NCBI GenBank assembly: GCA_021158055.1
Contig: JAGGVJ010000038.1
Span: 1 to 43,809, forward strand
Length of the DNA stretch: 43,809 nt
Direction: 5' to 3'
From: Candidatus Iainarchaeum sp.
Lineage (GTDB): Archaea; Iainarchaeota; Iainarchaeia; JAGGVJ01
Part shown: positions 9,396 to 40,503 of the stretch, one piece after another
Position numbering within the stretch: position 1 is the first letter of the stretch
Layout of the letters: the number at the start of each line of letters is the position of its first letter
Made by a program: the position numbers and the translations under genes
Notes under the pieces: generated by a model
Told to the model about the DNA's origin: nothing
The model's database searches: none
The model's input: the letters and a program-made list of their open reading frames with translations, nothing else

Positions 9396-9740
9396 ATGGT
9401 GTTTGACAGCAAGGGTCTGAACCACATAAGAAAAAGGCGAAACGGTTACATAGATTACGAAAAGTACCCGCATCCTAACAAGTGGATGAAAATCATTGAC
9501 AAAATTGTGATTTTTAGTGGTTTTGCGGGTTTTTTGATTACCCTGCCGCAAATAACACGCATCTGGATTGACAATGTAACCGCGGGTGTGTCGCTTGTTT
9601 CCTGGATGGGTTATTTTGTGATTGCGGTTACCTGGATAATTTACGGGCTGGTGCACAAGGAAAAGTCAATTATAATCACAAATGTGTTGTGGGTTTTGGC
9701 CCACACCATGATAATTGTGGGACTTTTGATTTACGGGTAA
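9396..9740 (+). CDS. SemiSWEET/PQ-loop family transporter
   Basis: Three TM helices with TLPQITRIW and AGVSLVSW motifs, and IIITN. Confidence 0.8.
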   Translation: MVFDSKGLNHIRKRRNGYIDYEKYPHPNKWMKIIDKIVIFSGFAGFLITLPQITRIWIDNVTAGVSLVSWMGYFVIAVTWIIYGLVHKEKSIIITNVLWVLAHTMIIVGLLIYG

Positions 9741-12636
9741 GGTTGCAGGCGCCTATTTCTTTCATGTGCTCTATTCTTTTCTGCAGCAGCTTTGGTGTGC
9801 CGATGTCGCTTCTGTAACGCACGTTTCCCTTGACTTTCATGCATGCTTTTTCTGCTTTTTCCTGCGCCTCGTCTATGGTGTCTGCAACTGCGACGATTCC
9901 AAGCGCTCTTGAAGAGCTCATGAACAGTTTTCCCTGTTGTTGGTTTACTGACGCAAAGTAAATATTGACTCCTTCCTGCGCCTCGTCCTCTATGCTTCTT
10001 ATGTCAACTTCGTCACCGCTTGACGGGTTGTCCGGATATCCTTTCGGAACAAGGTATTTGCATACTGTTGCCTTGTCGGAGAATTTTACGTCAATGTCTT
10101 TCAGTTTTGTTGCGGTTATTGCGCGGCAGATTTCAACAAGGTCTGTTTCAAGCAGTGTTAGCGCGTTTATTGCTTCGGGGTCGCCGAGCCGCGCGTTGTA
10201 TTCAATGAGCTTGACTCCGTTTTTTGTTGCTATGAACCCGCCGTACATTATTCCTTTGTATTTTTGCTTTGTTTCAGCCAGTATTGCCTTGTTGACTTCA
10301 ATGGTGATGTCGTGTGCCTGCCTGATGTGGCTTTTGGTTATGAACGGAAGGCCTTTGCATGCTCCGTTGTATGACCCCATACCTCCGGTATTCGGTCCTG
10401 TGTCGTCTTCAAATGCTCTTTTGTGATCCTGTATTGGCGGCATGTCAATCACTGTTTCACCGTCAACAAAGGACTGCAGGCTGAATTCTTCCCCTGCAAG
10501 CTTTTCTTCAATTACTGCCTTGTTTCCCTGCGCAAATATTTCTTTGCAGTAATCAATCCCGTCCTGAACGGTCTGCAGGTGTTCTCCCTGCACTTTTACT
10601 CCTTTGCCTCCTGTAAGGCCGTCTGGCTTGACAACAAATCCTGTGTCCTGAAGTGATTCCAGGAATTCTTCAAGTCCTTGCGTTGAGGAGAATATTTCAA
10701 ATTTGGGGTTTCCGAAGATGTTGTGTTTTTTCAAAAGCAGTCTTGTAAACGATTTGCTTGTTTCAAGTTTTCCGAGTTCTTTTTTCGGCCCTACTGACGG
10801 GATCCCCATTTTTTCAAGCTCGTCTGCAACACCTGCTGAAATGGGCAGCTCTGGTCCGATGAACGCAAATTCGGGTTTTGTTTGTTTTGCAAATTCAACT
10901 ATCGCGGAAACGTCATCCAATGCGCCGATTTTTATCTGCTCGGACAATCCTGCAATTCCCGGGTTCATTGCGTTCATGAATGCGTAGATTTTGGGTTTTG
11001 ACACGCTTTTTTTCAGGGTTTCTGCTATGATGTGTTCTCTCGCGCTGTTTCCGATGACAAGGATTTTGGGGTGTTTTCCCGCATTTTGCGCTTGTGTCGC
11101 GTGGTCTGCAGCGGTTTCACCTTCAGTTGCGGTGGTTTTACCTTCAAGGCCTTCGGTTATTGCTGTGTGGGGGCTGTTGTTTGAGTTGATTTCTTCTGTT
11201 CTTTTTTTTGCTATCTCTTCAAGGGTTGTTTGTTTCATTTTTATCGGGTAGTTGCCGTCCAAACACGCGGTGCACAGGTTTTCACAGCCGATTGCTTTTT
11301 TCAGCCCCTCGATTGTCTGGTAGGTTACGGTGTCTGCACCGATTTCCTGTGCTATTTCGGCTTCGGTTTTGTTGTTTGCTATGAGCTCGTCTTTTGTGGG
11401 CATGTCTATCCCGTAAATGCACGGGTACATGATCTTGGGGCATGTTGAGATCATGTGAACGCTTTTCGCGTCGGATTTTTTGAGTTTTGCAATGAGTTTT
11501 GCGCTTGTTGTGCCGCGCACTATGCTGTCATCAATTATGGCTATTTTTTTCCCTGTCACTTCGTGTTTTAAGGTGTTTATCTTGAGGTTTGCCGCGTCTT
11601 CTCTTTCGCTTTGGGTGGGCATTATGAATGTTCTTCCGATATACCTGTTTTTTATTAATCCTTCCCTGTAAGGCACTTTTATCTTTTCCGAGAATGCAAG
11701 GGCTGCGGTCCGCGAGGTGTCCGGGGCGGCTATGACCACGTCAACTTCTATGTTTTTTTTGTCTTGTTTTTTTGCCCATTCATGCACAATTTCTTCACCG
11801 AGTCTTTGCCTTGTTTTGTAAACGCTTTTTCCGTTGAGGTCTGAGTCAGGGCGGGCAAAGTATACATATTCAAACATGCAGTGAGAGTAAGTGTCTTCAA
11901 CAAGTTTTTTTCTGCAGATCCCTGTCTCGCGGTCTATAATGACAATTTCTCCTGGCTGCACGTCATCAACAAGCTCAAAATCCAATGCATCGCAGGCAAC
12001 TGTTTCTGAGGCGATCAGATAACTTTTCCCTGTTGGCTCTTTTTTTTCTCCTATTACAAGGGGTTTGATTCCTTTGGGGTCGCGGAATGCAATGAGTCCT
12101 ATTCCTTTGATTATCCCCACTATTGAGTAACTTCCAATCGCTTTTTCCATGAATTTCCGGGTTGCGGCAATAACATCTTGTTTTGTGGGCTTTTCCCTGT
12201 TGTTGACATGCATCTCATGCTTTAAAAGGAGTGAAAAGACCTGCATCAGGCCTTCAAGGTCGCACTGTGAACTGAGTGAAATGTTTTTGTCCCACAGCCA
12301 TTTTTTAAGTTCTTCGTAGTTTATGGTGTTTCCGTTGCTTGCCATTGCAATTTCTATTGGAAGAGATGTAAAAAACGGTTGCGCGTTTTTGCGTGTGCAT
12401 GCCCCGGCTGTTGTGTATCTTACATGCCCTATGCCGATGTTGCCCTGAAGTTTCGAAAGATTGTGGTCTTTGAAAGTTTGGGTCACAAGACCTTTCTTTT
12501 TTCTTATTCTGATTTTCCCGTCAAAAAGAGTCGCGATCCCAACTGAATCCTGGCCGCGGTGCTGCAGAGAAAGCAGTGACTGATAAATTTTTTTAGATGT
12601 GTTTTCATTAGAAAGTATTCCAACTATCCCACACAT
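9676..12636 (-). CDS. purF-purD: Fused amidophosphoribosyltransferase / phosphoribosylamine-glycine ligase
   Basis: PurF part: MCGIVG, LQHRGQD, GHVRYTT, CMFEYVYFARPDS, DDSIVRGTT, CTAC. After a ~40-aa linker, PurD part: GNSAREH, IGPELP, LETSKSF, KPDGLTGGKGV, QDHKR, GPNTGGMG, EYNARLGDPE. One uninterrupted 986-aa ORF. Confidence 0.95.
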   Translation of the reverse strand: MCGIVGILSNENTSKKIYQSLLSLQHRGQDSVGIATLFDGKIRIRKKKGLVTQTFKDHNLSKLQGNIGIGHVRYTTAGACTRKNAQPFFTSLPIEIAMASNGNTINYEELKKWLWDKNISLSSQCDLEGLMQVFSLLLKHEMHVNNREKPTKQDVIAATRKFMEKAIGSYSIVGIIKGIGLIAFRDPKGIKPLVIGEKKEPTGKSYLIASETVACDALDFELVDDVQPGEIVIIDRETGICRKKLVEDTYSHCMFEYVYFARPDSDLNGKSVYKTRQRLGEEIVHEWAKKQDKKNIEVDVVIAAPDTSRTAALAFSEKIKVPYREGLIKNRYIGRTFIMPTQSEREDAANLKINTLKHEVTGKKIAIIDDSIVRGTTSAKLIAKLKKSDAKSVHMISTCPKIMYPCIYGIDMPTKDELIANNKTEAEIAQEIGADTVTYQTIEGLKKAIGCENLCTACLDGNYPIKMKQTTLEEIAKKRTEEINSNNSPHTAITEGLEGKTTATEGETAADHATQAQNAGKHPKILVIGNSAREHIIAETLKKSVSKPKIYAFMNAMNPGIAGLSEQIKIGALDDVSAIVEFAKQTKPEFAFIGPELPISAGVADELEKMGIPSVGPKKELGKLETSKSFTRLLLKKHNIFGNPKFEIFSSTQGLEEFLESLQDTGFVVKPDGLTGGKGVKVQGEHLQTVQDGIDYCKEIFAQGNKAVIEEKLAGEEFSLQSFVDGETVIDMPPIQDHKRAFEDDTGPNTGGMGSYNGACKGLPFITKSHIRQAHDITIEVNKAILAETKQKYKGIMYGGFIATKNGVKLIEYNARLGDPEAINALTLLETDLVEICRAITATKLKDIDVKFSDKATVCKYLVPKGYPDNPSSGDEVDIRSIEDEAQEGVNIYFASVNQQQGKLFMSSSRALGIVAVADTIDEAQEKAEKACMKVKGNVRYRSDIGTPKLLQKRIEHMKEIGACNLTRKSKVPQLSWCGPKPTTHL

Positions 12637-16340: not shown

Positions 16341-16781
16341 TTAATATATGTAAAAATAGTATGATTCCTGGTCTGTTGCCACAAACAGCACATCTCTTGT
16401 TTTTAGTTTTCCGGTCCCCATGAAACTTGTTTCCTGGTTTTTCCTGAGTATGTTCAGTTCGGGTCCGCCGTTGATATTGTTTAACTGGACGATCTGGCCT
16501 GATTTTTTTGCCAGGAAGATCTTCAGGGCCGTGAGGTCAACCCTGCCTGTGTTTTCCACGGTTATTCTTACGTTGTCTCCTGATTCTACGTTTCCGCCGA
16601 ATTCGTCTGAGAGCTTCAGGTTTGCGTCGAGTTTTTCTTCAAGTTTTGTCATGCTTGTTTTGGTTTGTTCAAAGTCGGTTATTGTCTGGTTTACTGTGTA
16701 GTTTGTTATCATGGTGATCATCATTCCGAATATCATGACTGAGAATACGAGTGTGAACGCCTGATGTATCCCTCTTTTCAT
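16341..16781 (-). CDS. Archaeal type IV pilin-like protein
   Basis: Class III signal-like MKRG|IHQAF plus a hydrophobic helix, and the VENTGRVDL motif. Confidence 0.7.
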   Translation of the reverse strand: MKRGIHQAFTLVFSVMIFGMMITMITNYTVNQTITDFEQTKTSMTKLEEKLDANLKLSDEFGGNVESGDNVRITVENTGRVDLTALKIFLAKKSGQIVQLNNINGGPELNILRKNQETSFMGTGKLKTRDVLFVATDQESYYFYIY

Positions 16782-17218
16782 TGTGTCACCGTGGTTATGT
16801 ATAGTCCTTGCTTGCTGGTTATTATAATCTTGTCCCCTTCGTTTGTCGCTCCAAGGACCATTGTGGTGTTTTGGTCCGGGGGCAGGCTGGTTCTTTGAAG
16901 GGCCAGTTCTTCTATGGTGCCGTTTTCATCCATGTGGTGGGCGGTTATGTTTGTTGCGTCTTTTGATCCCTGGTTTGATATGAACGCGATTGAGTCGCCT
17001 TGATTTATTTCGCTTCCGTTTTCATCCATTACCGCGAGCATGGAGTCGTTTAACACATTTTTTCTTTCCAGATTTTTGATTGCTTCGTTTTCAAACCCGC
17101 TTATTGATTTTTTTTTGATCTGTGTCATGCTTGAGGCTGTGAACAGGAGAATTGACGTGATGCATATTATGAAGAGTATGTTTGAAAATCCTCTTGAGAT
17201 TTGTTTCATGTGGCTCAC
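16778..17218 (-). CDS. Archaeal type IV pilin-like protein
   Basis: ISRG|FSNILF plus a hydrophobic helix, ISNQGSKDA and LPPDQ...GDKIIITS. 4-bp overlaps with both neighbours. Confidence 0.7.
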   Translation of the reverse strand: MSHMKQISRGFSNILFIICITSILLFTASSMTQIKKKSISGFENEAIKNLERKNVLNDSMLAVMDENGSEINQGDSIAFISNQGSKDATNITAHHMDENGTIEELALQRTSLPPDQNTTMVLGATNEGDKIIITSKQGLYITTVTQ

Positions 17219-20115
17219 ATTATTTTTTCAGTTGATATTTCGGCTGAAGTGATTTTTATCCTGTCTCCGGGCGATGCGCTTCCAATGTCTGCGATGCACA
17301 TTTCCCCGGGCGCGAGTCTGCTTAGTGTCTGGCTTGAGACGTCAAACCGCTGGTTTTCAATCACGTATACAATTGTCCATCTGTCAAGCATTGCTGTGCT
17401 GAACTGGTCAGTCGACTGCATGTTTGCCCTTAGTTTTATGACTGAGGCGTTTTGGTCAAGCAGCCCTCCGTTTGAAAGGTTTGTCTGAATCGGGTTTCCG
17501 GATTCGTTTAAGAGGTCCACGGTCAGCGTTGTGTTGTTTGAGTCCTGGGTTGCTGGCAGCCAGGAAACAGAGGTCCATGAGACAAGGTTATTTGGGGCAA
17601 TTGAAAAGGAGATGATTGTTCCGTTTGAGTCATATTTTTTCGTGTATTTGTATATGAGGTAGTCGTTTTCACATGAAATGTATACTGACGGGTGGTCGAC
17701 TGCAAGTGACCTTGTTTTGTTCCCAAGGCACACGTTCAGAACGTCAAACAGGTTGTAATCGTTTTTTGTGTAGATTTTTACTTGTCCTCCGCTGTTTCCC
17801 GCGTAGATGAAGTCGTCATCAACAGCCACGGGGTTGATGGTGGATGGCACCAGAGCAGTTTTGTTGAGGTCTACTGTGACCATGTCTGTGCCGGTGTTGT
17901 TGTCGCTGTTTGTGACGCTTACTACGATCGTGTTTAGGCCGGGATCCAAAAAGATTTGTTTTTGAAATACCCCGTAGGTGATCGGAAGGTAATAGTCGTC
18001 TCCGTTCAGTGTTAGTGTTCCGTTGGGTGTTGTGGTGTCGTCGACTAATCCGGTGACGGTTATTGTGTCGTCACCAACAACTGTTCCGTTTTTTGGGGAG
18101 ATGATGTTTACGAGTACACTGTTGGTGGTCAGGAATACGCTTATTTCTTTTGAGGAGGTTTTTCCCTGCGGGCTTGTTGCAGTGATTTTTATTGTGTTTC
18201 CACCTTCTTCGAGCGTGATGTTTTCAACGAAGACGCCGTTGGTTACAGGTATTGTGGTGTCTGTTCCGTTTAGAGTGAGGGTCACGTCAGTGATTCCGGT
18301 GTTGTTTACTGCACCTGCAAGGGTTTGCTGCGAGTTTGAGTAGGTTTCGCCATGAATCGGGGAGTTTATAGTTATTATGGGGATGCTTGCGTCGTACAGG
18401 ACGTTTATGAGTGCGCTTGAACCGGTGTTTGTTGCTTTGTCTGTTGCGCTTACGAAGATTAAATTGTTTCCTTCTTCAAGCACCGCGGAACCGCCGAAAG
18501 TCATGCTGCTTACTGAAATTTGTTTGGGGTTTCCGTTCAGTGTCAGTGTTGCCTGGCTCATTTCCTGATCTTCGTCTGAGATTGTCCCGGTCACTATCAG
18601 GGTCTGTTCTCCTGTGCTGTACCCGTCTGCGGGAAAGTTGATTGTTATGTCAGGGGGAGCCATGTCAACATAGACATTTATTATCGGGCTTGTTCCGGTT
18701 TTTCCGCTGAGGTTTGTGCCGACTGCTTTTATTTCGTTGTTTCCGAGAGAAAGCGTGAGGTCTTTTGTGAATACTCCTGAAGTTACATTGGCTGTTCCGG
18801 CGCTGATTTCGTTTATAAACAGGTCCACTGAGCTGACGTCTGTGTCATTGACTGTTCCGTTTATCGTCTGGCTGTTGTTGTTTGTCCAGGTGTTGTTTGG
18901 AGGAGAGGTGATGGTCAATTCAGGCAGTTCAGGGTCAAGTGTCACTGTGATTTCATCGAACCCGGTGTTGTTTGCCTTGTCTGTCAAGGACACTCTTATG
19001 GTGTTTGAACCGCTTTCAAGTGCAATGGGCTCGCTGAAGTTTCCGTTTGTTATAGGGATTGTGCTTTCTGAGCCGTTGATCAGCACTGTCGCCTCTGTGA
19101 TTGTCAGGTCGTCTGATGTTCCGGCAAGCGTCTGGTTTGGGTCCGGAACAATTGTCCCGTCAAGTGGGCTTGTTATGTTTACCGCGGGGTTTGTTATGTC
19201 AAGCACTATGGCGATTGTCTGGCTTGTCCCGGTGTTTCCAAAAGTGTCTGTTGCTGTGACTGAGATTGTGTTTGTGCCGACAAGAAGGGTTACCGGTTGG
19301 TTGAAGGCGAGGTTTGTCACGCTTATTTGAGTGGGAACCCCGTTTAACCTGAGGACTGCCTGCGATATTGTTGTGTCGGAATCGTCAATTGTCCCTGTTA
19401 CGTTTCTTGCGAAGTTGTTTGTGTAGGTTCCGTTTGTCGGATTTGTTATGGTGATTATCGGGGCGTCTGTGTCAGTGTAGTCTCCGGTCAGGGTCAGGTC
19501 GTCTATTGCAAAGCCGTTGTAGACTTTTTTGTTATCTGAACCCATATGGAATCTTATTTTTGTATTGCTTTGCCCGTTCAGTGCTGAGAGAAGGAATGTT
19601 TTTTGTTCCCATGCCGTGCTGTCGTCACACCATCCCTGGACATATCCAAGTGGGTTTGTGTCGCTTGTTATTGTTTCTGTGTAGCCTCCTTCAGGGAATA
19701 CTTGTGTCCATGTGCTTCCTCCGTTTACTGATATCTCAACTATCGCTCCGTCGTTGCAGTCTTTGAACTGGCGGTATTGCCAGTATGTCAAGACAATGTT
19801 GTTGTAGTTTTTCAGGTCAAGCGGGGGGGTTTCTGCCCAGGAGTTTTCATAGAAGTTGTATTCTCCGGTCGGGTTTGTCTGCATTACAAATGAGTCTGTG
19901 TGTGCGGCACCCGGTTCTATTGTGGGGGTCCCTCTTGCCCATGAGTTGTTTGGTCCCCCGACAGTCCACCCGCTTTCGAATTCAAAACCCTCCTGAAAGA
20001 TCACTGCTCCGGATCCGGTTTGGAGTTGAAGGATCGCGATAGTCAGGATTAGGGTCGCTAATGAAATGAGTTTGGTTTTTGCCTTGATTTTTTCTCTTTT
20101 GTTTGCGTGTTTCAT
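17215..20115 (-). CDS. Large secreted adhesin-like protein: jelly-roll (InhA/MAM-like) domain, six Ig-like repeats, two propeller blades, pilin-like C-terminus
   Basis: Sec-type signal, IFQEGFE...TPPLDL...VEISVNGGSTW...IDDL, six ~90-aa D..P.itItsP.nG...GxNtI.v.atD repeats, and C-terminal LAPGEMC...PGDRIKITS. Confidence 0.85.
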   Translation of the reverse strand: MKHANKREKIKAKTKLISLATLILTIAILQLQTGSGAVIFQEGFEFESGWTVGGPNNSWARGTPTIEPGAAHTDSFVMQTNPTGEYNFYENSWAETPPLDLKNYNNIVLTYWQYRQFKDCNDGAIVEISVNGGSTWTQVFPEGGYTETITSDTNPLGYVQGWCDDSTAWEQKTFLLSALNGQSNTKIRFHMGSDNKKVYNGFAIDDLTLTGDYTDTDAPIITITNPTNGTYTNNFARNVTGTIDDSDTTISQAVLRLNGVPTQISVTNLAFNQPVTLLVGTNTISVTATDTFGNTGTSQTIAIVLDITNPAVNITSPLDGTIVPDPNQTLAGTSDDLTITEATVLINGSESTIPITNGNFSEPIALESGSNTIRVSLTDKANNTGFDEITVTLDPELPELTITSPPNNTWTNNNSQTINGTVNDTDVSSVDLFINEISAGTANVTSGVFTKDLTLSLGNNEIKAVGTNLSGKTGTSPIINVYVDMAPPDITINFPADGYSTGEQTLIVTGTISDEDQEMSQATLTLNGNPKQISVSSMTFGGSAVLEEGNNLIFVSATDKATNTGSSALINVLYDASIPIITINSPIHGETYSNSQQTLAGAVNNTGITDVTLTLNGTDTTIPVTNGVFVENITLEEGGNTIKITATSPQGKTSSKEISVFLTTNSVLVNIISPKNGTVVGDDTITVTGLVDDTTTPNGTLTLNGDDYYLPITYGVFQKQIFLDPGLNTIVVSVTNSDNNTGTDMVTVDLNKTALVPSTINPVAVDDDFIYAGNSGGQVKIYTKNDYNLFDVLNVCLGNKTRSLAVDHPSVYISCENDYLIYKYTKKYDSNGTIISFSIAPNNLVSWTSVSWLPATQDSNNTTLTVDLLNESGNPIQTNLSNGGLLDQNASVIKLRANMQSTDQFSTAMLDRWTIVYVIENQRFDVSSQTLSRLAPGEMCIADIGSASPGDRIKITSAEISTEKIM

Positions 20116-20167
20116 TTGATTCCCTTTGATTTTTTTGTCTGCCTGTATTTTTTATAAGATGTCAAGT

Positions 20168-21283
20168 TTATGAGTTATCCAGTGTGGCAAGCAGGTCCCA
20201 TGTGTCTTTTTCAAACACGTGTACCTTGTTGTCTTCGGTCGCCGCGTAGATTCTTGATACGTCGCTTTTTACTGAAGTCACTTGCGCTGTCCCGGTGATT
20301 ATTGAGGTTGTCTGTTCCCAGTTGCTTTTGCTTACCACTGCAATTGACCCGTCCTGGAGCCCTGCGTAAAGGTATTTTGTGTCAGCGTAAATGGAGTTTA
20401 TTCCTACTTCCCCTAGATCTATTTTCCTGACGCGGTTCCATTCCTTGTCTGTGAGCGTGATTATTGTGTATGCGTTGTCTCCCGCGTACACGAAGTTTAT
20501 GTCGGAAAAAACAGCATCAACAGTGTTTTCCGTTGGTTCGGTGGCGGTGAAGGTTGTTGTCAGGTTCAGGTCGATCTTGTCATACACGAGCACTTCATCG
20601 TCTTCTCCAACCACGTAAATGTAATTTTCATCCCCGTGGATTGATTTGAGCTGGTCTGTCGGCTCTGCCGCCGCATTCAGGATGTAAACTGCCCCTGCAG
20701 AAGGGTTTGATCTGTCGTAGATGTTGATTATTGATCCGTTTGCCGCACTGTATTCTACGGCGTATATTTTTTCATTGTCTGTGTAAACGGAGTTGATTTG
20801 GGCATTTATATTGTATGCGTCTGACAGTGGGTTTTCGGACTGGAAGTCTGGAGGATATGTCAGGTTCAGTGTAGCTTTTCCCCCGCCTATTGTTGTGTTT
20901 GTAAGTATTTCTTCTTTGGTCTGGTCATTGAAGTGGTCTTCCCAGGTAAGCGAAGCCAACTCGGTGTTTCCTTCAACAGAGTAGCACGGCACAAGATTAT
21001 TGTTTACATAGACAGCTATTTTTGTGATGTCCTGCAGGCCTTCGTTGAATACGATTGCTTTGTTGCCCTGCAGCCCAAGGGTGATGTTTATTCCGCTTTT
21101 TTCAATTTGGGTGTCCAGCCTGGTTTTCACTGAACCTGTAATCCTGTTTACTTCGTCCTGGCTCCACACCCACAACAGGATAAAGGTGGAGACGGATATC
21201 CCTACGAGAAGCACGCTTGCTATTGTGGAGCTCAATGCTTTTTTGTCTTTGAACCGGTTGAGTTTGAGTCTGCTAATAGTCAT
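20168..21283 (-). CDS. Type IV pilin-anchored protein with five beta-propeller blades
   Basis: KDKKA|LSSTIASVLLV class III signal, IVFNEGLQDI, and five INSvxxD..YIYag repeats. Probable ATG at 21283. Confidence 0.8.
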   Translation of the reverse strand: MTISRLKLNRFKDKKALSSTIASVLLVGISVSTFILLWVWSQDEVNRITGSVKTRLDTQIEKSGINITLGLQGNKAIVFNEGLQDITKIAVYVNNNLVPCYSVEGNTELASLTWEDHFNDQTKEEILTNTTIGGGKATLNLTYPPDFQSENPLSDAYNINAQINSVYTDNEKIYAVEYSAANGSIINIYDRSNPSAGAVYILNAAAEPTDQLKSIHGDENYIYVVGEDDEVLVYDKIDLNLTTTFTATEPTENTVDAVFSDINFVYAGDNAYTIITLTDKEWNRVRKIDLGEVGINSIYADTKYLYAGLQDGSIAVVSKSNWEQTTSIITGTAQVTSVKSDVSRIYAATEDNKVHVFEKDTWDLLATLDNS

Positions 21284-21776
21284 ATTTTGCAGACCTCTCA
21301 AGGGTGCTGATGAATATTGTTTTCCCGTCAAGGGTTTCATTGTCTGTGGCTCCGTTGCAGTCTATGTTGAAGTAGCATGCGGTGCCTGATTCTATTGAGT
21401 TGCAGGCACTGCCGTCAAGTTCCATGATTGCGGTCGGCACTCCGGACCCGGGAGAGTATTGGGTGCCGTCAAAAAACGCCTTGGGTTCTGTTCCGGTTGC
21501 GGTCCCTGCATTGTATACAAATACGGGCGCGCTGTTTGCACTGCAGTCTATTGGTGGTGGTTTTATGTCAAGGTCTATTCGCAGTTTGCTTATCTGCGTG
21601 TTGAGGTTTAAGTCCATGTCTGACTGGAGTCCTGCAAGGGAAGCGTTTGCCCAGTAATAAGTGGTTACCATAAGTGATGCGGCAGCGCTTACCAGAAGAA
21701 CTGTTGATATTATTTGGTTTACTGCGCGCCTGTCGTTTTTTAGTCCTTTTTTGCGCGTTTGTTTTTGAAAAAGCAT
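21273..21776 (-). CDS. Archaeal type IV pilin
   Basis: NDRRA|VNQIISTVLLV class III signal, VYNAGT, and SD GAGGTGA upstream. Confidence 0.8.
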   Translation of the reverse strand: MLFQKQTRKKGLKNDRRAVNQIISTVLLVSAAASLMVTTYYWANASLAGLQSDMDLNLNTQISKLRIDLDIKPPPIDCSANSAPVFVYNAGTATGTEPKAFFDGTQYSPGSGVPTAIMELDGSACNSIESGTACYFNIDCNGATDNETLDGKTIFISTLERSAKYDY

Positions 21777-21954
21777 GGTTTCACCTCATAAGGTAAGATT
21801 CAAGAAGTTCTTTTTGTTATTAATTACTTTCTTTTTTGCGAAACGATAGTGTAATTTTTTGGCTTTTATCACGCCAGGCGTTTTTCAGGATTTTTTGCAT
21901 TGGCTGGGCAATTTCCGAAGTGTTAAATACTTTTTAAGCCGTATTTATCAGTGT

Positions 21955-22899
21955 ATGGGGAATTCAGGTATTTTTTTCAAAGCGGTTGCACTGGTCGCAT
22001 TTTTTTTGTTGGTCATGTTTTTGTTGAATGTGCAGTTTTCTTTTCCTTCTCAGGAGGAAGACGGGATCTCAAAGGCTGAGGCGCTTGAAAGGGCAAGGGG
22101 TGTCTTGAGGGATTCTAATTTTTCAGGTGAGATAAAGGATTATATTGTGACTCCTGTCAAGGGCGGCTTTGACGCGCGGTTTTTTTTCTTCCCAAGAGAT
22201 TGGGTTGTGTTGCCGGGTTTTGTTGTGACCGGAAAGCAGGTGATTGTTTCTTCGCAGGGAACGGTTCTTGAGGTAAGGGATTTTGTTTCGGAAAACGATG
22301 TTGTCTTGGTTTCCAGTGTAAAAGGTGTTTTGGAGCATTCGGAGAGCAATTTGGAGCACTCGACCGGCAATGGCAATTTTCAGGAGAGTATTTTTTCAGA
22401 CAGGCGGGTTTCTTTTATCGGAAAGTTTGTTTCAGAAGACCTGTTTACTGATTTGACGTCTGAGATCAAGGTGATTGATTCAAAAGACTGTGTTTCAAAG
22501 GATGTCGGTTTTGAGCTGGGCAGGGTGTATCAGGTTTTTGGACGGGTTTCAGAAAATGTGTTTTTGCTTGAAAAGATTTCTCCATCTGTTTTTTCCATGC
22601 CTTCAGCCGTTGAGACTGAAAGGAGTTTTGATTTCAACACCACTGTTTTTGAAACCGGAAAAGTTTTTTCTTCCTTGCACCCGGGCAGGAAACCGGTGTG
22701 TGTCTTGGCTTACAGGAATGTGGGGGTGTGCCCGGCGGAAGTCCCGGACTGTGTTTTCACAGAAGAGCATCTTTATGAGTGGGTTGGCGTTGCAGAGTAT
22801 GTTGATTTGGATTCAGATTCATCCCGCCTGAGTGCAGTGGTGTTTTCCATTAACGGGACCCCGAGACAGACAGCTGATGTTAGCGGAAGTATCTGTTAG
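21955..22899 (+). CDS. Hypothetical membrane-anchored protein
   Basis: Probable ATG at 21955 (MGNSG), a single N-terminal TM helix, and a PepSY-like ISKAEALERA stretch. Confidence 0.65.
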   Translation: MGNSGIFFKAVALVAFFLLVMFLLNVQFSFPSQEEDGISKAEALERARGVLRDSNFSGEIKDYIVTPVKGGFDARFFFFPRDWVVLPGFVVTGKQVIVSSQGTVLEVRDFVSENDVVLVSSVKGVLEHSESNLEHSTGNGNFQESIFSDRRVSFIGKFVSEDLFTDLTSEIKVIDSKDCVSKDVGFELGRVYQVFGRVSENVFLLEKISPSVFSMPSAVETERSFDFNTTVFETGKVFSSLHPGRKPVCVLAYRNVGVCPAEVPDCVFTEEHLYEWVGVAEYVDLDSDSSRLSAVVFSINGTPRQTADVSGSIC

Positions 22900-22988
22900 T
22901 ACTTGTTTTGTTGCAGCACCTCATCATTTTTGCAAAAAGCGGGAATGCAAGACAACGCTTTAATAAGAGATTGTTCTTTTTTTCTCTT

Positions 22989-23786
22989 ATGGCTGGTGTC
23001 AGGCAGGAAAAGTATCACGATGATTTTGTAAAATCCGGGATAGAGGGTTTTGATGACCTTTTTACCAGGAAAGGAATCCCTGTCGGGCTCCCAAGGGGTT
23101 CTGTTGTTCTTTTATCCGGTTCTTGCGGTGCTGGAAAAAGCATTTTTTCTGCGCAGTTTCTTTACAAGGGGATTATTAATTGCAGGGAGCCCGGGCTTTA
23201 TGTGTCAGTTGACGAGACCACTGACAACCTCTGGAAAGTCATCTATATGTTTAATTGGGCTAAAGAGCACCCTGATGCTCTTCGCAGGAAAGGGTTGCTT
23301 CACAATATGCAGATGATCGGATCCCGCACCCATTCAAGAAAAGACACTCAGGTCAATTATGAAACTTATCTTCGGAAGCTTGAGTTTGCAGAGTTTTTGA
23401 AGAAGCTGAAACAAATTGTTGCCACATATAAAATAAAACGCCTTGTGATTGATTCTTCTTCACAGCTTTCCATGCATTTTAAGACAGAGCTTGAGAGGAG
23501 GTCCGGCCTGATAAGGCTGATCAACCTGCTTAAAAGACTTGACTGCACGTCAATTTTTACTTCCGAAATTTTTGAGAGGGGGCCGATTACTTATTCCCGC
23601 CTTGGCATGGAAGAGTTTTTGGCTGACGGGGTTATTGTTTTGCGCCACACTGAAGCGAGAACAGGGCTTCGAAGGCACATCCTTGTCAAGAAAATGAGGG
23701 GCTTGCGTCACGATGAGGATTTTCACCCGTTTGTGATTGATGAAGAGGAAGGGGTCAGGATTTTCCCGCAGGAAAAGGTTTTCTGA
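22989..23786 (+). CDS. KaiC/RAD55-like RecA-superfamily ATPase
   Basis: SGIEGFDDL, Walker A GSCGAGKS, RLVIDS, EEFLADGVI and KMRG. Confidence 0.92.
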   Translation: MAGVRQEKYHDDFVKSGIEGFDDLFTRKGIPVGLPRGSVVLLSGSCGAGKSIFSAQFLYKGIINCREPGLYVSVDETTDNLWKVIYMFNWAKEHPDALRRKGLLHNMQMIGSRTHSRKDTQVNYETYLRKLEFAEFLKKLKQIVATYKIKRLVIDSSSQLSMHFKTELERRSGLIRLINLLKRLDCTSIFTSEIFERGPITYSRLGMEEFLADGVIVLRHTEARTGLRRHILVKKMRGLRHDEDFHPFVIDEEEGVRIFPQEKVF

Positions 23787-23787
23787 T

Positions 23788-24546
23788 TTAGGAAGGGATT
23801 TCTTTTTTTGGAGTTATTTCCTCAAAGTTTTTTTCAATGTATTTGAGTTTGAGGGCCAGGCCCGAGTCTATTAAGTCGAAGGGCAGCCATTCGTCTTCAA
23901 GCCTTACGGCGTGTCTTCTTACCCTGATGTAGTTTTTGGTTTCTTCTCTCCGGAATTCCAGTGTAAAGTCTGTCAGGTGTTCGGCTGTGATTTCTATGTT
24001 TTTGTCAAACATGTTTTTGCTGAGCAGCGCAAATAAAACCATGCTGTGTTTTTTTATCATGGCGCGCAGAGCGTGAATGAACCGGAATACTGCGTCTGGC
24101 GGGTTGTAGAGCAAAAGGGTTGAAAGCGAGTCAATTACTAGAAAGCAGGTGTTTTTTGTTGCCGCGAACTTTTCGCATTCTTCTTTTATTTTCACGCTAA
24201 GCATGTTCAGGTTTGATAGGTCTTCAGTGTTGTGTTTTTGTTCGAATGTCCATGAGTAGGCGTCTATTATTGAAGTTTTTTTTGGGTCCAGTTTCCACCC
24301 GAATCTTTTGATGGTTTTTTTTGTGGTTTCCAAAGAGTTGTCTGTTGTAATTATGATTGTGTTTGTTTTTTCGTTTTTGCCGTTGAAAAGAATTTGTTCC
24401 ACAAATATTTCTTTTTCTTTTCTTGGCGGCCCCAAGACAAGTATGGTTGACCCGGCAGTTATTCCTCCGTTTAGCAGCTCGTCAAATTCTTTTATCCCGG
24501 TTTTGATTTGCTTCCCGGAAGTTTCTTTGTTTGTTGCAGCGTTCAT
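23788..24546 (-). CDS. KaiC/RAD55-like protein with degenerate Walker A
   Basis: TGIKEFDELLNGGI, P-loop GPPRKEKE, IIDAYS and VIDSLSTLL. Confidence 0.85.
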   Translation of the reverse strand: MNAATNKETSGKQIKTGIKEFDELLNGGITAGSTILVLGPPRKEKEIFVEQILFNGKNEKTNTIIITTDNSLETTKKTIKRFGWKLDPKKTSIIDAYSWTFEQKHNTEDLSNLNMLSVKIKEECEKFAATKNTCFLVIDSLSTLLLYNPPDAVFRFIHALRAMIKKHSMVLFALLSKNMFDKNIEITAEHLTDFTLEFRREETKNYIRVRRHAVRLEDEWLPFDLIDSGLALKLKYIEKNFEEITPKKEIPS

Positions 24547-24789: not shown

Positions 24790-26076
24790 ATGAGTTTGTC
24801 AGGAAGGTTTTTTGGGTTGATTGCAATTGGTGTAATGTTGTTTGCGGTGTCGGGTGGGGTTTCAGCAGAGGCCTCAAGCGAGCCGAGTTCTGCGTTTATT
24901 GTGTTCCCGTTGAGCATGGAGGAAACAGCAGTATTTCCGGAAGTGATTGAGCCCGGGGAAAAAGGGGTGATTATAACTGCAAATATCCGGCACAATGACT
25001 TTAAGGACACTGTAGAAAACCTGAAGGGCATAATGCATTTTTCAAGCCCGTTGAAGTCGGTCGGTTTAAATACGGTGGAGGTTGGTGACCTCAAGCCCAA
25101 TGTCACAACCACGCTTGGTTTTGGCGCGGATGTGTCAGCGGTTGCAAAACGCGGCACTTACAAGCTTACTCTTGAACTGATTTACGATTACCTTGGCAAT
25201 GTCGGGATAAGCCAGAAGTTCCCGGTAACCGTTGTTGTTACGGGCTCGCCGGTACTTGATTTGACTGATATAAACATTTTCCCAAAGACCGCTAATCCCG
25301 GAGACTCTGTTAAGATAGAGGCGGTTGTCAGAAACACGGGAACGTATTCTTCAAAAAACACTTTTGTGTCGCTTGAACCCATAGAGCTCGCGTTTGGTTT
25401 AACTTCTGCTGCTGCAATGCCTGCGATGTCTTCGCAGGTGTTTATAATCCCGAGAAGCGAGCTTAAGGTGTTTGTGGGCAACTTGGGTGTCGGGGAGTCA
25501 AAGACTGTGTCGTTCATGCTTGATATTGACCCGTCAGCTGTTCCTTCAGTTTATCCCTTGAGTCTGAAGGTCGAGTCTGAAGGGATAAGTGAATTGGAGT
25601 TGATTGCGCTTGACGTGCAGGGCGAACCAGAGCTCACACTGGCAACCGCTGAAACAGATATTGACAAGATTGTTGCAGGGGGGGATTTTTCTCTTTCGAT
25701 ACAGCTTGACAACATCGGTTCGGACGGTGCGCTTGCAACAGAGGTTTCTGTGGAAAATGATGTCGGGTTCCTTGGACGGGCCACTGCGTATGTCGGAACA
25801 ATTGATGTGGATGACTCGGGTTCGGCAATATTTGATTTTTCAGTTCCAGTAGATATGGAAGCCGGCAAAAAGGTTTTGGAAGTAAAAGTGACTTACCTGG
25901 ATGAAAACAGGGAGCCGCATTCAATGATAAAACGGGTTGAGCTGTTTGTTTTTGAGGCTCCGCAGGCAGCGGACATGACTCCGATCCTGTTGGTCGTCGC
26001 GGCGCTTGTTGCGGGTTTTTTTGCTTTTAAGTTTCTGCAGAGAAGAAGAAAACTCAGGCAAATCGGGGTTAAGTGA
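24790..26076 (+). CDS. COG1361-type S-layer-domain/CARDB repeat protein
   Basis: Signal peptide, three Ig-like repeats (VGDLKP, VGNLGVGE, YVGTIDVDD) and a C-terminal TM helix with basic tail. Lies upstream of a MacB-type ABC system. Confidence 0.85.
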   Translation: MSLSGRFFGLIAIGVMLFAVSGGVSAEASSEPSSAFIVFPLSMEETAVFPEVIEPGEKGVIITANIRHNDFKDTVENLKGIMHFSSPLKSVGLNTVEVGDLKPNVTTTLGFGADVSAVAKRGTYKLTLELIYDYLGNVGISQKFPVTVVVTGSPVLDLTDINIFPKTANPGDSVKIEAVVRNTGTYSSKNTFVSLEPIELAFGLTSAAAMPAMSSQVFIIPRSELKVFVGNLGVGESKTVSFMLDIDPSAVPSVYPLSLKVESEGISELELIALDVQGEPELTLATAETDIDKIVAGGDFSLSIQLDNIGSDGALATEVSVENDVGFLGRATAYVGTIDVDDSGSAIFDFSVPVDMEAGKKVLEVKVTYLDENREPHSMIKRVELFVFEAPQAADMTPILLVVAALVAGFFAFKFLQRRRKLRQIGVK

Positions 26077-26108
26077 TGGCCTGCTTTGCAGGTTGAGGGG
26101 GTTCTTCT

Positions 26109-27290
26109 GTGTTTAAAGAAGCCTTGTTGAATCTTTCCCGGCGCAAGAGCCGCACTGTTCTTGCGTTGGTAGGGATAATTCTCGGCGTTGCGGCAATCAT
26201 AACTTTGGTTTCCGTTGTTGACGGCGTTGCTTCAAATGCCGAGGATTATCTGAGCGAGTTCAAGGGAATCAGCGTCACGCAAAAAGACGTTGTAACTCCG
26301 TTGTATAGCAGCTTTGACAGTGAATTTTTGAACAAGGTAGAAAGTATTCCGGGAGTGAATATTGTTGTTTCTGCAGTTGTCGGCCTGTCAAACGTTACCG
26401 AGCAAAAGAGGGGCGTTCGTTTTTCAAAAGAGAGGACAATGATGCAAATGACCTCGGAGATTGTTTCTTTGCTTGGTGTTGATCTGAAGAATTATTCAAG
26501 GGTGCACGGAACCGTCACCCCGTTAATCGGTGAACTTGAGGAAGGGCGCAACCTTAAAATGGGGGATGTGGGAAAGACAGTTATCTCAAGGGAGTTGGCA
26601 GACAACTACCGCAAGAGAATTGGCAATTCAATTGAACTGGCTGATAAAAAGTTTGATATTGTGGGAATTTCCAAGTCCGGGGTTTCGTTTGGCGGAATGA
26701 TGTCTGGTACTGCCGTTGTTTCAATTGATGACGCACGGGAAATGCTTGATTTGGAAAAAGACAAGGTGGGGCTATTGTATGTTGAGCCCATTGATTTTTC
26801 TAACACGAAACAGGTTGCAAACAGGATTAATTTTGTGTACGGGGATGATCTGGAGGCAAATATCCAGGGTGATTTTTTAGGGCAGGCAATGGGTATTTTT
26901 TCAAGCCTTCGTTCCCTTGTGTATGTTGTCGGCGCGATTTCTGCAATAGTTGCGGGAATCGGCATCCTTAACGTGATGCTTATGAGTGTTCTTGAACGGA
27001 CCAGGGAGTTTGGCACTTTGAGGGCTGTCGGCTGGTTGAGTTCGGATGTCATGAAGATGGTTTTGTTTGAGTCGGTTCTGCTTGGGGTGATCGGGGGTTT
27101 GCTTGGGTTGCTTTTCGGGGTTTTTATCTCGTTCCAGATTACTGCGTTGAGCGGTCTGAATACATTGGTGTCTTTTGAAGTGTTGTTTTTCAGTTTTATG
27201 TTTGCGTTGGCGGTGTCTGTTTTGGCAGGGATTTACCCTGCTTTCAGGGCGTCTAAAATGAGTGTTATGGAGGCGCTTAGAAATGAATGA
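26109..27290 (+). CDS. ABC transporter permease (MacB/FtsX family)
   Basis: RRKSRTVLALVGIILGV, GILNVMLMSVLERTREFGTLRAVG and YPAFRAS. Confidence 0.93.
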   Translation: MFKEALLNLSRRKSRTVLALVGIILGVAAIITLVSVVDGVASNAEDYLSEFKGISVTQKDVVTPLYSSFDSEFLNKVESIPGVNIVVSAVVGLSNVTEQKRGVRFSKERTMMQMTSEIVSLLGVDLKNYSRVHGTVTPLIGELEEGRNLKMGDVGKTVISRELADNYRKRIGNSIELADKKFDIVGISKSGVSFGGMMSGTAVVSIDDAREMLDLEKDKVGLLYVEPIDFSNTKQVANRINFVYGDDLEANIQGDFLGQAMGIFSSLRSLVYVVGAISAIVAGIGILNVMLMSVLERTREFGTLRAVGWLSSDVMKMVLFESVLLGVIGGLLGLLFGVFISFQITALSGLNTLVSFEVLFFSFMFALAVSVLAGIYPAFRASKMSVMEALRNE

Positions 27291-28023
27291 GAAGCCGGGT
27301 GAAAAGATTCTTGAAGCAGTGAATGTAACCAAGCATTACAGGATGGGGAATGTGACAGTCAAGGCTTTGGACGGCGTGTCTATCGAAATTAAGCACGGGG
27401 AGTTTTTGGTGATAATGGGTCCGAGCGGAAGCGGCAAGAGCACTTTGCTGCATCTTTTGGGGGCCCTTGATTTGCCCAGTTCAGGCACTTTGCTGATTAA
27501 CGGCAAGGACATTTCGCAGTTTGATGATTTTCAGCTTTCGATGTTCAGAAGGAATTACCTGGGATTTATTTTTCAGACGTTTAACCTTGTTCCCACTTTG
27601 AATTGCCTTGAAAACGTTTTGGTTTCCCTGCTTCCAAGCGGTGTGAAGTTTGAGGATGAAAAGCATGCGGTTGAGTTGCTGAAACTGGTGGAGCTTGGCC
27701 ACAGGATAAACCACCGCCCGAACATGCTTTCAGGGGGGGAAAGGCAGAGGGTTTCTATTGCACGCGCTTTGATGAACGACCCTCCTCTTTTGCTTGCCGA
27801 TGAGCCCACCGGAAACCTTGATTCTGTCAGCGGGGGAAAGATCATGTCTTTTTTGAAGGATTTGAATCGCAAGGAAGGAGTTACGATTTTGATTGTTACG
27901 CACGACAGGGACATGGCACTGTATGCTGACAAGATAATTAATATTCGCGACGGCAAGCTTTTGGATGTTGAGGTCTTAAAAGACAGGAAGATTCACAAGA
28001 AGCACAAGAAGGTGATGGTTTAA
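27283..28023 (+). CDS. ABC transporter ATP-binding protein (LolD/MacB-type)
   Basis: GPSGSGKST, LSGGERQRV, LLADEPTGNLD and VTHD. ATG at 27283. Confidence 0.95.
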   Translation: MNEKPGEKILEAVNVTKHYRMGNVTVKALDGVSIEIKHGEFLVIMGPSGSGKSTLLHLLGALDLPSSGTLLINGKDISQFDDFQLSMFRRNYLGFIFQTFNLVPTLNCLENVLVSLLPSGVKFEDEKHAVELLKLVELGHRINHRPNMLSGGERQRVSIARALMNDPPLLLADEPTGNLDSVSGGKIMSFLKDLNRKEGVTILIVTHDRDMALYADKIINIRDGKLLDVEVLKDRKIHKKHKKVMV

Positions 28024-29181
28024 GTGCACAATGTTGCTTTGCGTAATCTTTTGCGCAGAAAGAGCAGGACTGTTCTTTCTCTTGCTGCACTGATGATTGG
28101 TGTGGCGGCGATAATTGTCCTGGTTTCGCTTGTTGAAGGGATAGAGGGGGATGCTCAAAATCTTTTCGGTTCCCTGAAAACCATTGATGTCATGGAGAAG
28201 GGTGCCGGGGACCAGACCCTTTCAAGGATTGATATTTCTTATGTGAACAAGCTGGAAAATGTTTCAGGAGTAAACGCTGTTGTTCCGGAAATCTATACTG
28301 TCGTGTTTTCCATTGACGGGAAAAGCATAATGGAATCAGGCAGCGGCATGCCGTTTCTTACAGTTCTTGGGGTGGATCTGCATAAGCGCGCTTTGATGAG
28401 GTCAGACAAACTTCCTTTTATTCCTGATGTTGAAAAAGGCCGTGATCTGCGTCCCGGCGACAAGTCAAAAATAATCATTACAGAAGAGATTGCCAAAACT
28501 TACAAGAAAGTTCTCGGAAGCAGGATAAAGCTGGGTGAAAAGGGTTTTGAGGTAGTGGGTGTTTTTGGCCCTTCTTCTTCAATGATGGCTCTTGCGGGCG
28601 GGATAGTCATGGTTCCGATTGATGACGCGCGGCAGTGCGCGGGCCTTCCCGCAGGCAAGGTCGGGATGTTTGTGATTGAGCCGAGCAATCCTGAAAAAAT
28701 TGACAAGTTGGCCACAGCGCTGAAATTTAAGTTTTCTGACGAGTTTGATTTTTTCATGGCTTCTGATTACACGTCAATGATGGGTGATATGCTTGGCGAG
28801 TTGAGGTTGCTGTTGTTTTTTGTCGGCGCGATTTCCGGGTTTATTGCAGGTGTGGGGATAATGAATACGATGCTGATGAGTGTGATGGAGAGGACAAAAG
28901 AAATCGGCGCGCTTCGTGCAATGGGCTGGACCGGCGGTGACGTTGTGAGGATGATTTTGTTTGAGTCTTTGTTTCTCGGAATTTTCGGCGGTATTTTCGG
29001 CGGTATTTTCGGCTGGTTAATTTCAAGCTTGATTGGAAGCAGTTTTGGGATACTCACCCGCGTTTCACCCGGCCTTTTTGCCTTGGGCTTTGTGTTTGCT
29101 GTGTTTGTCTCGGTTCTTGGGGGTCTTTACCCTGCTTTCAGGGCGTCCAGGATGAACCCGATTGAAGCGTTGAGAGAGTGA
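28024..29181 (+). CDS. ABC transporter permease (MacB/FtsX family), paralog
   Basis: RRKSRTVLS, GIMNTMLMSVMERTKEIGALRAMGW and YPAFRASRMNPIEALR. Confidence 0.93.
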   Translation: MHNVALRNLLRRKSRTVLSLAALMIGVAAIIVLVSLVEGIEGDAQNLFGSLKTIDVMEKGAGDQTLSRIDISYVNKLENVSGVNAVVPEIYTVVFSIDGKSIMESGSGMPFLTVLGVDLHKRALMRSDKLPFIPDVEKGRDLRPGDKSKIIITEEIAKTYKKVLGSRIKLGEKGFEVVGVFGPSSSMMALAGGIVMVPIDDARQCAGLPAGKVGMFVIEPSNPEKIDKLATALKFKFSDEFDFFMASDYTSMMGDMLGELRLLLFFVGAISGFIAGVGIMNTMLMSVMERTKEIGALRAMGWTGGDVVRMILFESLFLGIFGGIFGGIFGWLISSLIGSSFGILTRVSPGLFALGFVFAVFVSVLGGLYPAFRASRMNPIEALRE

Positions 29182-40036: not shown

Positions 40037-40218
40037 CTTGTTGATATGTTGATAATTACTTGATTTTTTTGAAGTTTCCAAAAAATAAATTAGTTTACAA
40101 ATAGTTTTAAAAAAGAGCTTTCACTATGGTTTTTAAAAGCCCTGTATCTTATATTTGGTTGTTAGTTATTGTAAAATTTACTGGATTAAAACAAGGTATC
40201 GGTGATTCTTTTTTGGAA

Positions 40219-40503
40219 ATGTCCAAAATGTTTAATACTGGTGACAAAAAGTTGTCGAAAAAAACTTCGGAAGTTTATTCAATAATTGCTTCCGAGTGGC
40301 CTGTTAATCCGTGTTTTGTAGCTAAAAAACTGGGGGAACACGTTTCCGAAAAAACACGAAAAAGAATATCTTCAAAGTACCTTTATCACTTTAAAAAACT
40401 TTACGATCAAGGACACATAATGATGAAAACAGTAGGAAATACAAAAATAGCCTGGGCAATGCAAGTTGAAAAATACAGGGTTATTGATGAGTTATTAGGG
40501 TGA
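40219..40503 (+). CDS. Small winged-HTH-like protein
   Basis: SD GGTGAT, VYSIIASEWPVNPCFVAKKL...YHFKKLYDQGHI. Its stop directly abuts the V4R gene start. Confidence 0.65.
   Translation: MSKMFNTGDKKLSKKTSEVYSIIASEWPVNPCFVAKKLGEHVSEKTRKRISSKYLYHFKKLYDQGHIMMKTVGNTKIAWAMQVEKYRVIDELLG

Follow-up and report, generated by a model that had tools for sequence, protein, structure and literature searches.

A pilin-like protein and a neighbouring adhesin-like protein of a Candidatus Iainarchaeum genome are predicted to share a propeller and a pilin head

The window analysed here is the whole of a 43,809-nucleotide stretch from Candidatus Iainarchaeum sp. (assembly GCA_021158055.1, contig JAGGVJ010000038.1, positions 1 to 43,809 of the forward strand), an archaeon whose genome assembly amounts to 1.15 Mb in 45 contigs and is 95% complete. 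On the minus strand of this window, from 21776 down to 16341, lie five head-to-tail genes that encode, in this order, a pilin-like protein of 167 amino acids, the two proteins that are the subject of this work and that we call A and B, and two pilin-like proteins of 146 amino acids each. The cluster contains four pilin-like genes, A among them, and a single putative adhesin gene, B. A has a class III prepilin-type signal and five propeller blades, B has a Sec-type signal, adhesin domains and two more blades of the same type, and the two chains are predicted to complete each other. The features of the cluster are given below with the evidence for each (ORF, open reading frame; AF2, AlphaFold2; Ig, immunoglobulin; a slash marks the putative cleavage site).

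21273..21776, minus strand: upstream pilin-like gene, 167 amino acids, first of the cluster (ORF)
20168-21283, minus strand: gene A, 371 amino acids (ORF)
21098..21283, minus strand: A 1-62, class III prepilin-type signal ..KDKKA/LSSTIASVLLVG.. and long N-terminal helix (sequence, hhalign)
20930..21097, minus strand: A 63-118, putative N-terminal part of the head, four short strands (AF2 strands, interface of the complex model)
20801..20929, minus strand: A 119-161, predicted linker of a helix and a hairpin (complex model)
20171..20800, minus strand: A 162-371, five full four-strand blades (blade anchors, AF2, Pfam)
20116..20167, minus strand: A-B spacer, 52 nucleotides, out of frame (sequence)
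17215-20115, minus strand: gene B, 966 amino acids (ORF)
20008..20115, minus strand: B 1-36, Sec-type signal with a K/R-rich n-region, hydrophobic LISLATLILTIAILQL and ..GSG/A (read from the sequence)
17872..20007, minus strand: B 37-748, MAM-like jelly-roll tip and six Ig-like repeats (Pfam)
17635..17871, minus strand: B 749-827, blade 6 (four strands) and blade 7 (three strands) (profile of the A blades, AF2, interface)
17362..17634, minus strand: B 828-918, autonomous beta-sandwich of no Pfam family (homology search, copies in the genome)
17218..17361, minus strand: B 919-966, putative pilin-like C-terminal strands ..LAPGEMCIADIGSASPGDRIKITS.. (interface, local alignment); stop codon at 17215-17217
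16778..17218, minus strand: small pilin-like gene downstream of B, 146 amino acids (ORF)
16341..16781, minus strand: second small pilin-like gene, 146 amino acids, end of the cluster (ORF)

The N-terminus of A is that of a class III prepilin, with a short, charged leader, a small residue at -1 and a hydrophobic helix of ~20 residues (..KDKKA/LSSTIASVLLVGISVSTFILLWVW). A longer frame of A exists, from 21340; the full-length orthologues P0003 and P0062 both begin at MTIS. Aligned with hhalign to a profile that combines 25 small pilins from genomes of this class, A obtained a probability of 97% (E 7e-11), with residues 10-118 lying on columns 2-110 of the 156 columns and columns 111-156 unmatched in A. 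No pilin model matched A in the Pfam or NCBIfam scans, and AF2 placed a helix at 8-62, at low confidence. The complete beta-sandwich head after the helix, by which an archaeal type IV pilin is recognised, is not found in A alone. The five blades are ~40 residues long (anchors at residues 162, 211, 254, 294 and 334), each has four strands in the AF2 model, and Pfam WD40_2 is matched at 27.8 bits for a cut-off of 22.5; the chain then stops (stop codon at 20168-20170). In the AF2 monomer of A the mean predicted local distance difference test (pLDDT) was 54, with values of 53-88 in the blades. The best Foldseek matches of this arc were WD40 rings of seven or eight blades, aligned along ~210-230 columns with a root-mean-square deviation of 2.5-3.5 Å, and in the top 50 we recognised no five-bladed entry, the blade numbers being those that we take these proteins to have. 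A sequence search of the PDB found no close solved relative (WD40 proteins came up, the best at E 0.0046), and the ESM Atlas had no usable match. Neither chain contains a closed seven-bladed ring of its own: A ends at blade 5, and blades 6 and 7 are found in B, after 748 residues.

B starts with its Sec-type signal, the layout of which is the same in the orthologue P0064. Pfam recognised InhA-like_MAM at 95-212 (E 6e-7), Glucodextran_B in six stretches (E 1e-59) and Big_13 (E 9e-8), together with a weak WD40 match at 766-852, and no PilY1/PilC family among the matches up to E 0.1. The blades of A and B are of one type, since a profile made from A's five blades alone finds B 759-789, that is, blade 6 (E 2.3e-7, for one target). 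Blade 7 was missed by this profile and found only by one containing blade 7 itself, which is circular. The AF2 model of B 745-966 (mean pLDDT 57) shows four strands in blade 6 and three in blade 7, so that the five times four strands of A, the four and three of B and one more from A make 28, i.e., seven blades. Seven was also the commonest number among single-propeller relatives (seven proteins with seven blades and five with six), counted with a profile that included the blades of A and B themselves. The matches of the B C-terminus in the ESM Atlas, propeller-like clusters at 0.89 or lower, are leads only. An earlier reading of the window, made from the sequence without database searches (the sequence-only reading), had described much of this, and its description holds: both ORFs are intact, the motifs that it quoted are all in place, the blades are divided five and two, and B has the Sec-like signal, the jelly-roll domain and the six Ig repeats.

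The same reading had proposed that A and the last ~220 residues of B complete each other, and this is now supported in silico. The complex of A 40-371 with B 745-966, each accompanied by one orthologue (2-row alignments), was predicted in three runs with ESMFold2. The interaction prediction score from aligned errors (ipSAE), which is the model's own confidence, was 0.93, 0.92 and 0.92, and that of the best of three controls 0.00; in a calibration that is roughly valid with custom alignments, the mark was reached by 58 of 80 solved complexes and by 2 of 110 mismatched pairs. Contacts agreed from run to run to at least 80%, with a partner pLDDT of 79. A had a pLDDT of 79-80 beside B versus 66 beside unrelated partners, and the C-terminus of B 79 beside A versus 64 beside an unrelated chain. 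The predicted interface has ~450 contacts, ~350 of them below 8 Å of expected error, and they fall where the earlier reading would have them. Blade 5 would meet blade 6 through A 337-356 on B 761-772 (for example A 346/348 with B 763/770), and blade 1 would meet blade 7 through A 163 on B 814-821. A 150-153 is paired in the model with B 820-823 at an expected error of 0.6-0.7 Å, and A ~148-156 is predicted to close blade 7 as its fourth (“velcro”) strand. In the head, A 65-118 is predicted to touch B 910-962, mainly B 927-962. The interface residues of the A head are 65-67, 69, 71, 73-95, 98-103 and 108-118, and those of B are 752-793, 802-829, 927-947, 951-960 and 962. As no close solved relative was found by sequence (best E 0.0046), this result is not the memory of a homologous complex, and a memory of propellers would not account for the way in which the model unites the two pieces of the head.

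Between blade 7 and its tail B has a beta-sandwich, which the sequence-only reading had taken for the remainder of a domain begun in A. With B 750-966 as query, a collection of 1.84 billion representatives, unrestricted in length, gave 57 matches, 27 of which cover B ~809-935 alone, as one stretch of ~100 residues in otherwise unrelated surface proteins, while most of the remaining ones are blades only. Six further copies (seven with that of B) are found in large ORFs of the host genome:

C31:24407-24706, C18:5530-5796, C18:21222-21488, C13:686-964, C34:212-529, C36:99856-100140: copies of the sandwich on other contigs of the host genome

The pattern of the domain is ..Y.S.G....W..L.......T.L.VD.L...G.......L.LRA.L.....P.L..W.V.Y, no Pfam model matches it in B or in the 10 relatives scanned, and the sequence search of the PDB found no solved relative (best E 0.34). 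The sandwich of B is a complete, widespread domain and not half of one. Because of this, and because A 119-142 lies outside the confident interface of the complex model, two folds appear to be split, rather than the three nested domains that had been proposed. As for the tail, B 919-958 aligns to residues 98-137, the C-terminal end, of the product of the adjoining gene at 16778-17218, and 4 of 2000 shuffles scored as well; the likeness to the neighbouring pilins that had been claimed stands, weakly, for this one. With B 916-966 as query, the ORFs of the host genome gave no second split pair and no other adhesin ending in a pilin-like tail. The other long pilin-like proteins of this genome are single chains with appended domains.

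A homologue with A and the C-terminus of B in one chain, the search for which had been recommended together with the proposal, did not turn up in protein, class-genome or locus searches. Among proteins of 204-650 amino acids A retrieved the 371-residue orthologue alone and no unsplit form, and among those of 651-2000 nothing, which is weak evidence. Of the 57 matches of B 750-966 a single one, P0004 (63% identity), covers the whole query, and P0004 was also the only match of B 745-966 among proteins of 531-1691 amino acids. Across 215 genomes of the class the profile of A had a full-length match in the host genome only; 22 other genomes had matches, all of them small pilins or blade-only proteins (an earlier pass over 41 genomes had given two genomes with a match). 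Scans of metagenome and genome contigs for the locus detected no relative in any of the four made.

A single-chain protein with blades of this kind is P0066, of 663 amino acids, from a genome of the same class (L024:406-2394, plus strand, genome G197). Like A and B it combines a class III-type hydrophobic N-terminus (..KGQ/ASVEFLVIV..; Pfam Class_IIIsignal below cut-off, E 0.12), an Ig-like domain and blades of the same type; unlike them, it has its seven blades in one chain, followed by a short C-terminal strand segment. By BLASTP it matches A at E 6e-12 and the blades of B at E 5e-8. Only the blades align, so P0066 is not an orthologue. It shows, as far as sequence goes, that pilin-linked propellers of this blade type occur in one chain, and it is not evidence of ancestry. 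By eye, the propeller of P0066 seems to be set inside its second Ig-like domain, and the gene that follows it encodes a further pilin-like protein built along the same lines. A second genome of the class (G198) has, at L023:502-2296, a gene that resembles that of P0066 and contains masked letters. The insertion of an adhesin gene between blades 5 and 6 of an ancestral gene, which would have given B its signal peptide in one step, is a reasonable origin for the pair, though an unproven one.

The split itself is conserved. Exact copies of the A and B sequences are found on four contigs each, from sources that include NCBI, JGI/IMG, Logan and ENA, and in Logan the contigs of two runs, which may be the source sample, carry the whole 4.8-kb stretch unbroken. 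A run of another study (X3) contains a relative whose identity is roughly 91%; its contig at 19444-21051 crosses the A-B spacer, and a second one spans 17215-18984. A further run, X4, covers the stretch in part. In the stretch of X3 that encodes the Ig stalk of B, at 18650-18655, there is a 1-nucleotide deletion and, 5 nucleotides apart, a 1-nucleotide insertion that restores the frame (a compensated indel). In a more distant lineage the orthologue of A has 371 amino acids, is 67% identical and has the same start and end, and that of B has 979, is 56% identical and has the same order of domains; both are recorded with one contig and a longest length of 5239 nucleotides, taken to be a single contig common to the two. 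A metagenome-assembled genome named by its source Candidatus Diapherotrites archaeon has partial copies of A and B with adjacent locus tags. Compared segment by segment with the orthologue, identity was 78% in blade 6, 67% in the B tail, 71% in the A head, 82% and 71% in blades 4 and 5, and 53% in the Ig stalk. A misassembly at the junction, raised beforehand as something to be checked, and a recent decay of the gene are both unlikely, given that the same split is kept in a relative and in the contigs of another study.

The spacer also bears on how the two proteins are made. We reject their joining by read-through of a stop codon: the 52-nucleotide spacer puts B in another frame than A, has one more TGA in frame and, in the X3 relative, carries 1-nucleotide insertions at 20133 and 20150, which indicates that it tolerates frame-breaking indels. 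Inside the spacer, at 20150-20157 on the minus strand, there is a TTATAAAA box, 35-42 nucleotides upstream of the ATG of B, that by its sequence may be an archaeal TATA box and give B a promoter of its own. Elsewhere in the cluster the genes overlap. The start of A is overlapped by 11 nucleotides by the upstream pilin-like gene, which phmmer retrieves with A 1-160 as query (E 7e-4) and which has a weak match to the UpsB pilin model of NCBIfam (E 0.0023, under the cut-off). At the other end, the GTG start of the gene at 16778..17218 overlaps the stop of B by 4 nucleotides, an overlap already noted in the sequence-only reading that holds if this GTG is used; an alternative start is the ATG found 9 nucleotides downstream. 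Its product has an N-terminus that reads ..SRG/FSNILFIICITSILLF and no family above cut-off in the Pfam and NCBIfam scans. The two genes for proteins of 146 amino acids are related (none of 2000 shuffles matches their alignment score), and the product of the second, at 16341..16781, has a weak ArlF match (E 0.016, under the cut-off).

Our preferred interpretation, to which we give a probability of roughly 0.6, is that A and B are two halves of one extracellular assembly in which an adhesin is fixed to a pilin and carried on a filament. A would be made as a prepilin, with its class III signal, hydrophobic helix, incomplete head and five blades, and B would be exported apart from it, through Sec, with six Ig repeats as its stalk and a MAM-like binding domain at the tip. 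Outside the membrane the two blades of B would close the five-blade arc of A into a seven-bladed ring, the strand of A at ~148-156 would finish blade 7, and the last ~40 residues of B would finish the head of A. The very large, interlocked interface formed in this way would fix the adhesin onto the pilin subunit, which, together with the other three small pilin-like proteins of the cluster, would take its place in a type IV filament, most likely at the tip. A stronger version of this proposal is whole-domain complementation in place of one donated strand, with the propeller and the pilin head each built from two polypeptides, and with the pilin able to fold, and in this way to prime a filament, only once the adhesin has arrived. 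That would amount to an assembly checkpoint that evolved independently of PilY1-PilX, in a DPANN archaeon dependent on a host, and the adhesin could be its organ of host attachment; we put it forward tentatively, at somewhat less than even odds.

Several points weigh against the filament-borne pair. The binding of A to B is predicted throughout, and since the parts of a divided fold are prone to score well through their resemblance to solved single-chain propellers, the score speaks for compatibility with a ring and not for binding. The AF2 monomers, with alignments of 2 and 3 rows and mean pLDDT of 54 and 57, are uninformative on whether each chain folds independently. Conservation at the interface, from one orthologue pair, was 69% vs 63% for other residues in A (p 0.39) and 70% vs 57% in B (p 0.052). 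The hhalign match of A to pilins comes mostly from the N-terminal helix, with the head part aligned at low confidence. When the tail of B was compared with the other two neighbouring pilin-like proteins, its score was reached by 62 of 2000 shuffles for one, with the alignment in another position, and by 1745 of 2000 for the other, and the claimed likeness fails for both; phmmer with B 916-966 retrieved no neighbouring pilin, and hhalign of the tail against the small-pilin profile gave a non-significant probability of 0.4%. The sequence supports the pilin nature of this tail weakly, and as the likeness is so slight, the completion of the head would depend mainly on the complex model. The hydrophobic N-terminal stretch of B could be an uncleaved anchor. 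Finally, family scans of the window turned up neither an assembly ATPase nor a platform protein nor a prepilin peptidase, so that a link to any one filament is tentative.

Class III signals also occur on proteins that form no filament, such as the binding proteins of archaeal “bindosomes”. The complex could accordingly exist with the helix of A serving only as an anchor in the membrane, or in a short pseudopilus, and with the adhesin displayed at the cell surface in a bindosome-like manner. The lack of machinery genes in the window would fit this, as would the size of what is inserted in the head, since a propeller and an adhesin would hinder packing in the shaft, and accessory pilin-like proteins without an assigned role are numerous according to a 2026 survey of archaeal type IV filaments (PMC13705601, in its available text). 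A position at the tip removes the packing problem, and four pilin-like genes with one adhesin gene is the layout of the bacterial operons for tip complexes described in the available text of PMC12918778, so that we regard mere anchoring as unlikely, if still worth weighing beside the filament-borne assembly.

A deeper doubt is whether A and B are partners at all. Propellers with five blades do exist, and A could form a lectin-like ring with its own five while B works as a free or S-layer adhesin, the predicted complex being then an artefact of a model that tends to close propellers. The blades of A are moderately confident without B (pLDDT 53-88), the pilin-like tail of B is poorly supported by sequence, and conservation at the interface does not significantly exceed that of the remaining residues. 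But the two blades of B make no ring by themselves, and one of them, blade 7, has three strands in place of four; among the single-propeller relatives, seven blades are found more often than any other number; the arc of A fits rings of seven or eight blades, with no five-bladed one recognised among the listed matches; no segment of B is better conserved than blade 6, at 78%; and the three controls stayed at 0.00 in a model that also joins the pieces of the head, something that a memory of propellers does not give. Two independent neighbours are therefore, in our view, quite improbable. More improbable still is that an insertion broke up what had been a single gene and left the pair behind as its wreckage, with at least one of the two products a non-functional remnant kept for a short time only. 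It is true that the order of the parts in the DNA reads as one nested protein interrupted by foreign sequence, and that the family is narrow in the extreme: the protein searches turned it up in just one lineage besides this one. Yet both frames are intact (371 and 966 amino acids), B has a proper start and signal peptide, and the two genes are intact with the same ends in a lineage that is 56-67% identical, a divergence far too great for untouched pseudogenes.

Although the window lacks genes for filament assembly, the host genome has, above cut-off, seven matches to the assembly ATPase family T2SSE and four to the prepilin peptidase family Peptidase_A24. They are spread over several contigs (C12, C28, C32, C36, C38 and others), and a large share of this 1.15-Mb genome is type IV filament machinery. 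Next to the pilin cluster there are two convergent genes for KaiC-family ATPases (22908-23786, plus strand, and 23788-24546, minus strand), and between them and the cluster, at 21859-22899, one for a membrane protein of 346 amino acids without a family. Further on, 24790-29181 (plus strand) encodes a CARDB-like surface protein and then an ABC transporter of MacB type, with one ATPase between two FtsX/MacB_PCD permeases. On the other side of the cluster, at 9676-12636 (minus strand), an ORF of 986 amino acids has a PurF-like part (glutamine amidotransferase and phosphoribosyltransferase) fused to a complete GARS (PurD), which puts two steps of purine synthesis in one chain. G+C content is ~31% at 1-2000 and 40001-42000 and 39-48% in the middle of the window (4-40 kb).

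Propellers completed in trans are known from eukaryotes, where Sec13 pairs with Nup145C or Sec31 and Seh1 with Nup85. There too an open propeller is closed by a blade of another chain, in pairs that are obligate and very stable; in contrast to the arrangement predicted here, they are intracellular, belong to no filament and divide the blades six plus one, whereas A and B would divide them five plus two, with a closing strand given back and with a pilin head split as well. On split propellers we found nothing relevant in the literature searched. The closest bacterial parallel is PilC/PilY1, the last ~10 residues of which complete the sheet of minor pilins of the PilK/PilX family and hold the adhesin on type IV pili (PMC12918778 and PMC13711793, in their available text). 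Like these adhesins, as presented in the available part of PMC12918778, B is a large protein with a Sec signal encoded among minor-pilin-like genes, has propeller blades near its C-terminus and is predicted, though no more than predicted, to complete the sheet of a pilin head with its extreme C-terminus. Unlike them, B has no sequence relation to the family that the Pfam scan detected, would donate ~40 residues in place of one strand of ~10, and has only two blades of a propeller that is split 5+2 between pilin and adhesin, where theirs lies entirely in the adhesin (same source, same part); the host, moreover, is an archaeon, with class III-signal pilins. So far in silico only, the A-B pair may be an archaeal counterpart of PilY1 on its minor pilins, acting alike and standing outside the family. 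Archaeal type IV filament loci also encode PilY-like proteins (arCOG03511) and multi-Ig “hook-like” proteins with a presumed role in attachment, and B resembles them in being large, rich in Ig repeats and encoded beside archaeal pilin genes; they differ in that no docking mechanism or split fold is described for them in the available text of that survey (PMC13705601). The sequence-only reading knew of no archaeal adhesin docked by split folds, and we likewise came across no described example in the archaeal literature searched.

The way in which bacteria fix non-pilin adhesins to type IV filaments has been worked out very recently (2026; PMC12918778 and PMC13711793, as far as their available text goes), and the locus described here offers a testable archaeal case with a twist, in that two folds would be common to the pilin and its cargo. 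If the proposal is true, the chains that build these folds each take a route of their own across the membrane, A being inserted as a prepilin and B passing through Sec, and chains that fold only together would be a model for protein fission and for the finding of partners outside the cell. Small-genome DPANN archaea live attached to other cells, which makes a molecule that may establish the contact of particular interest.

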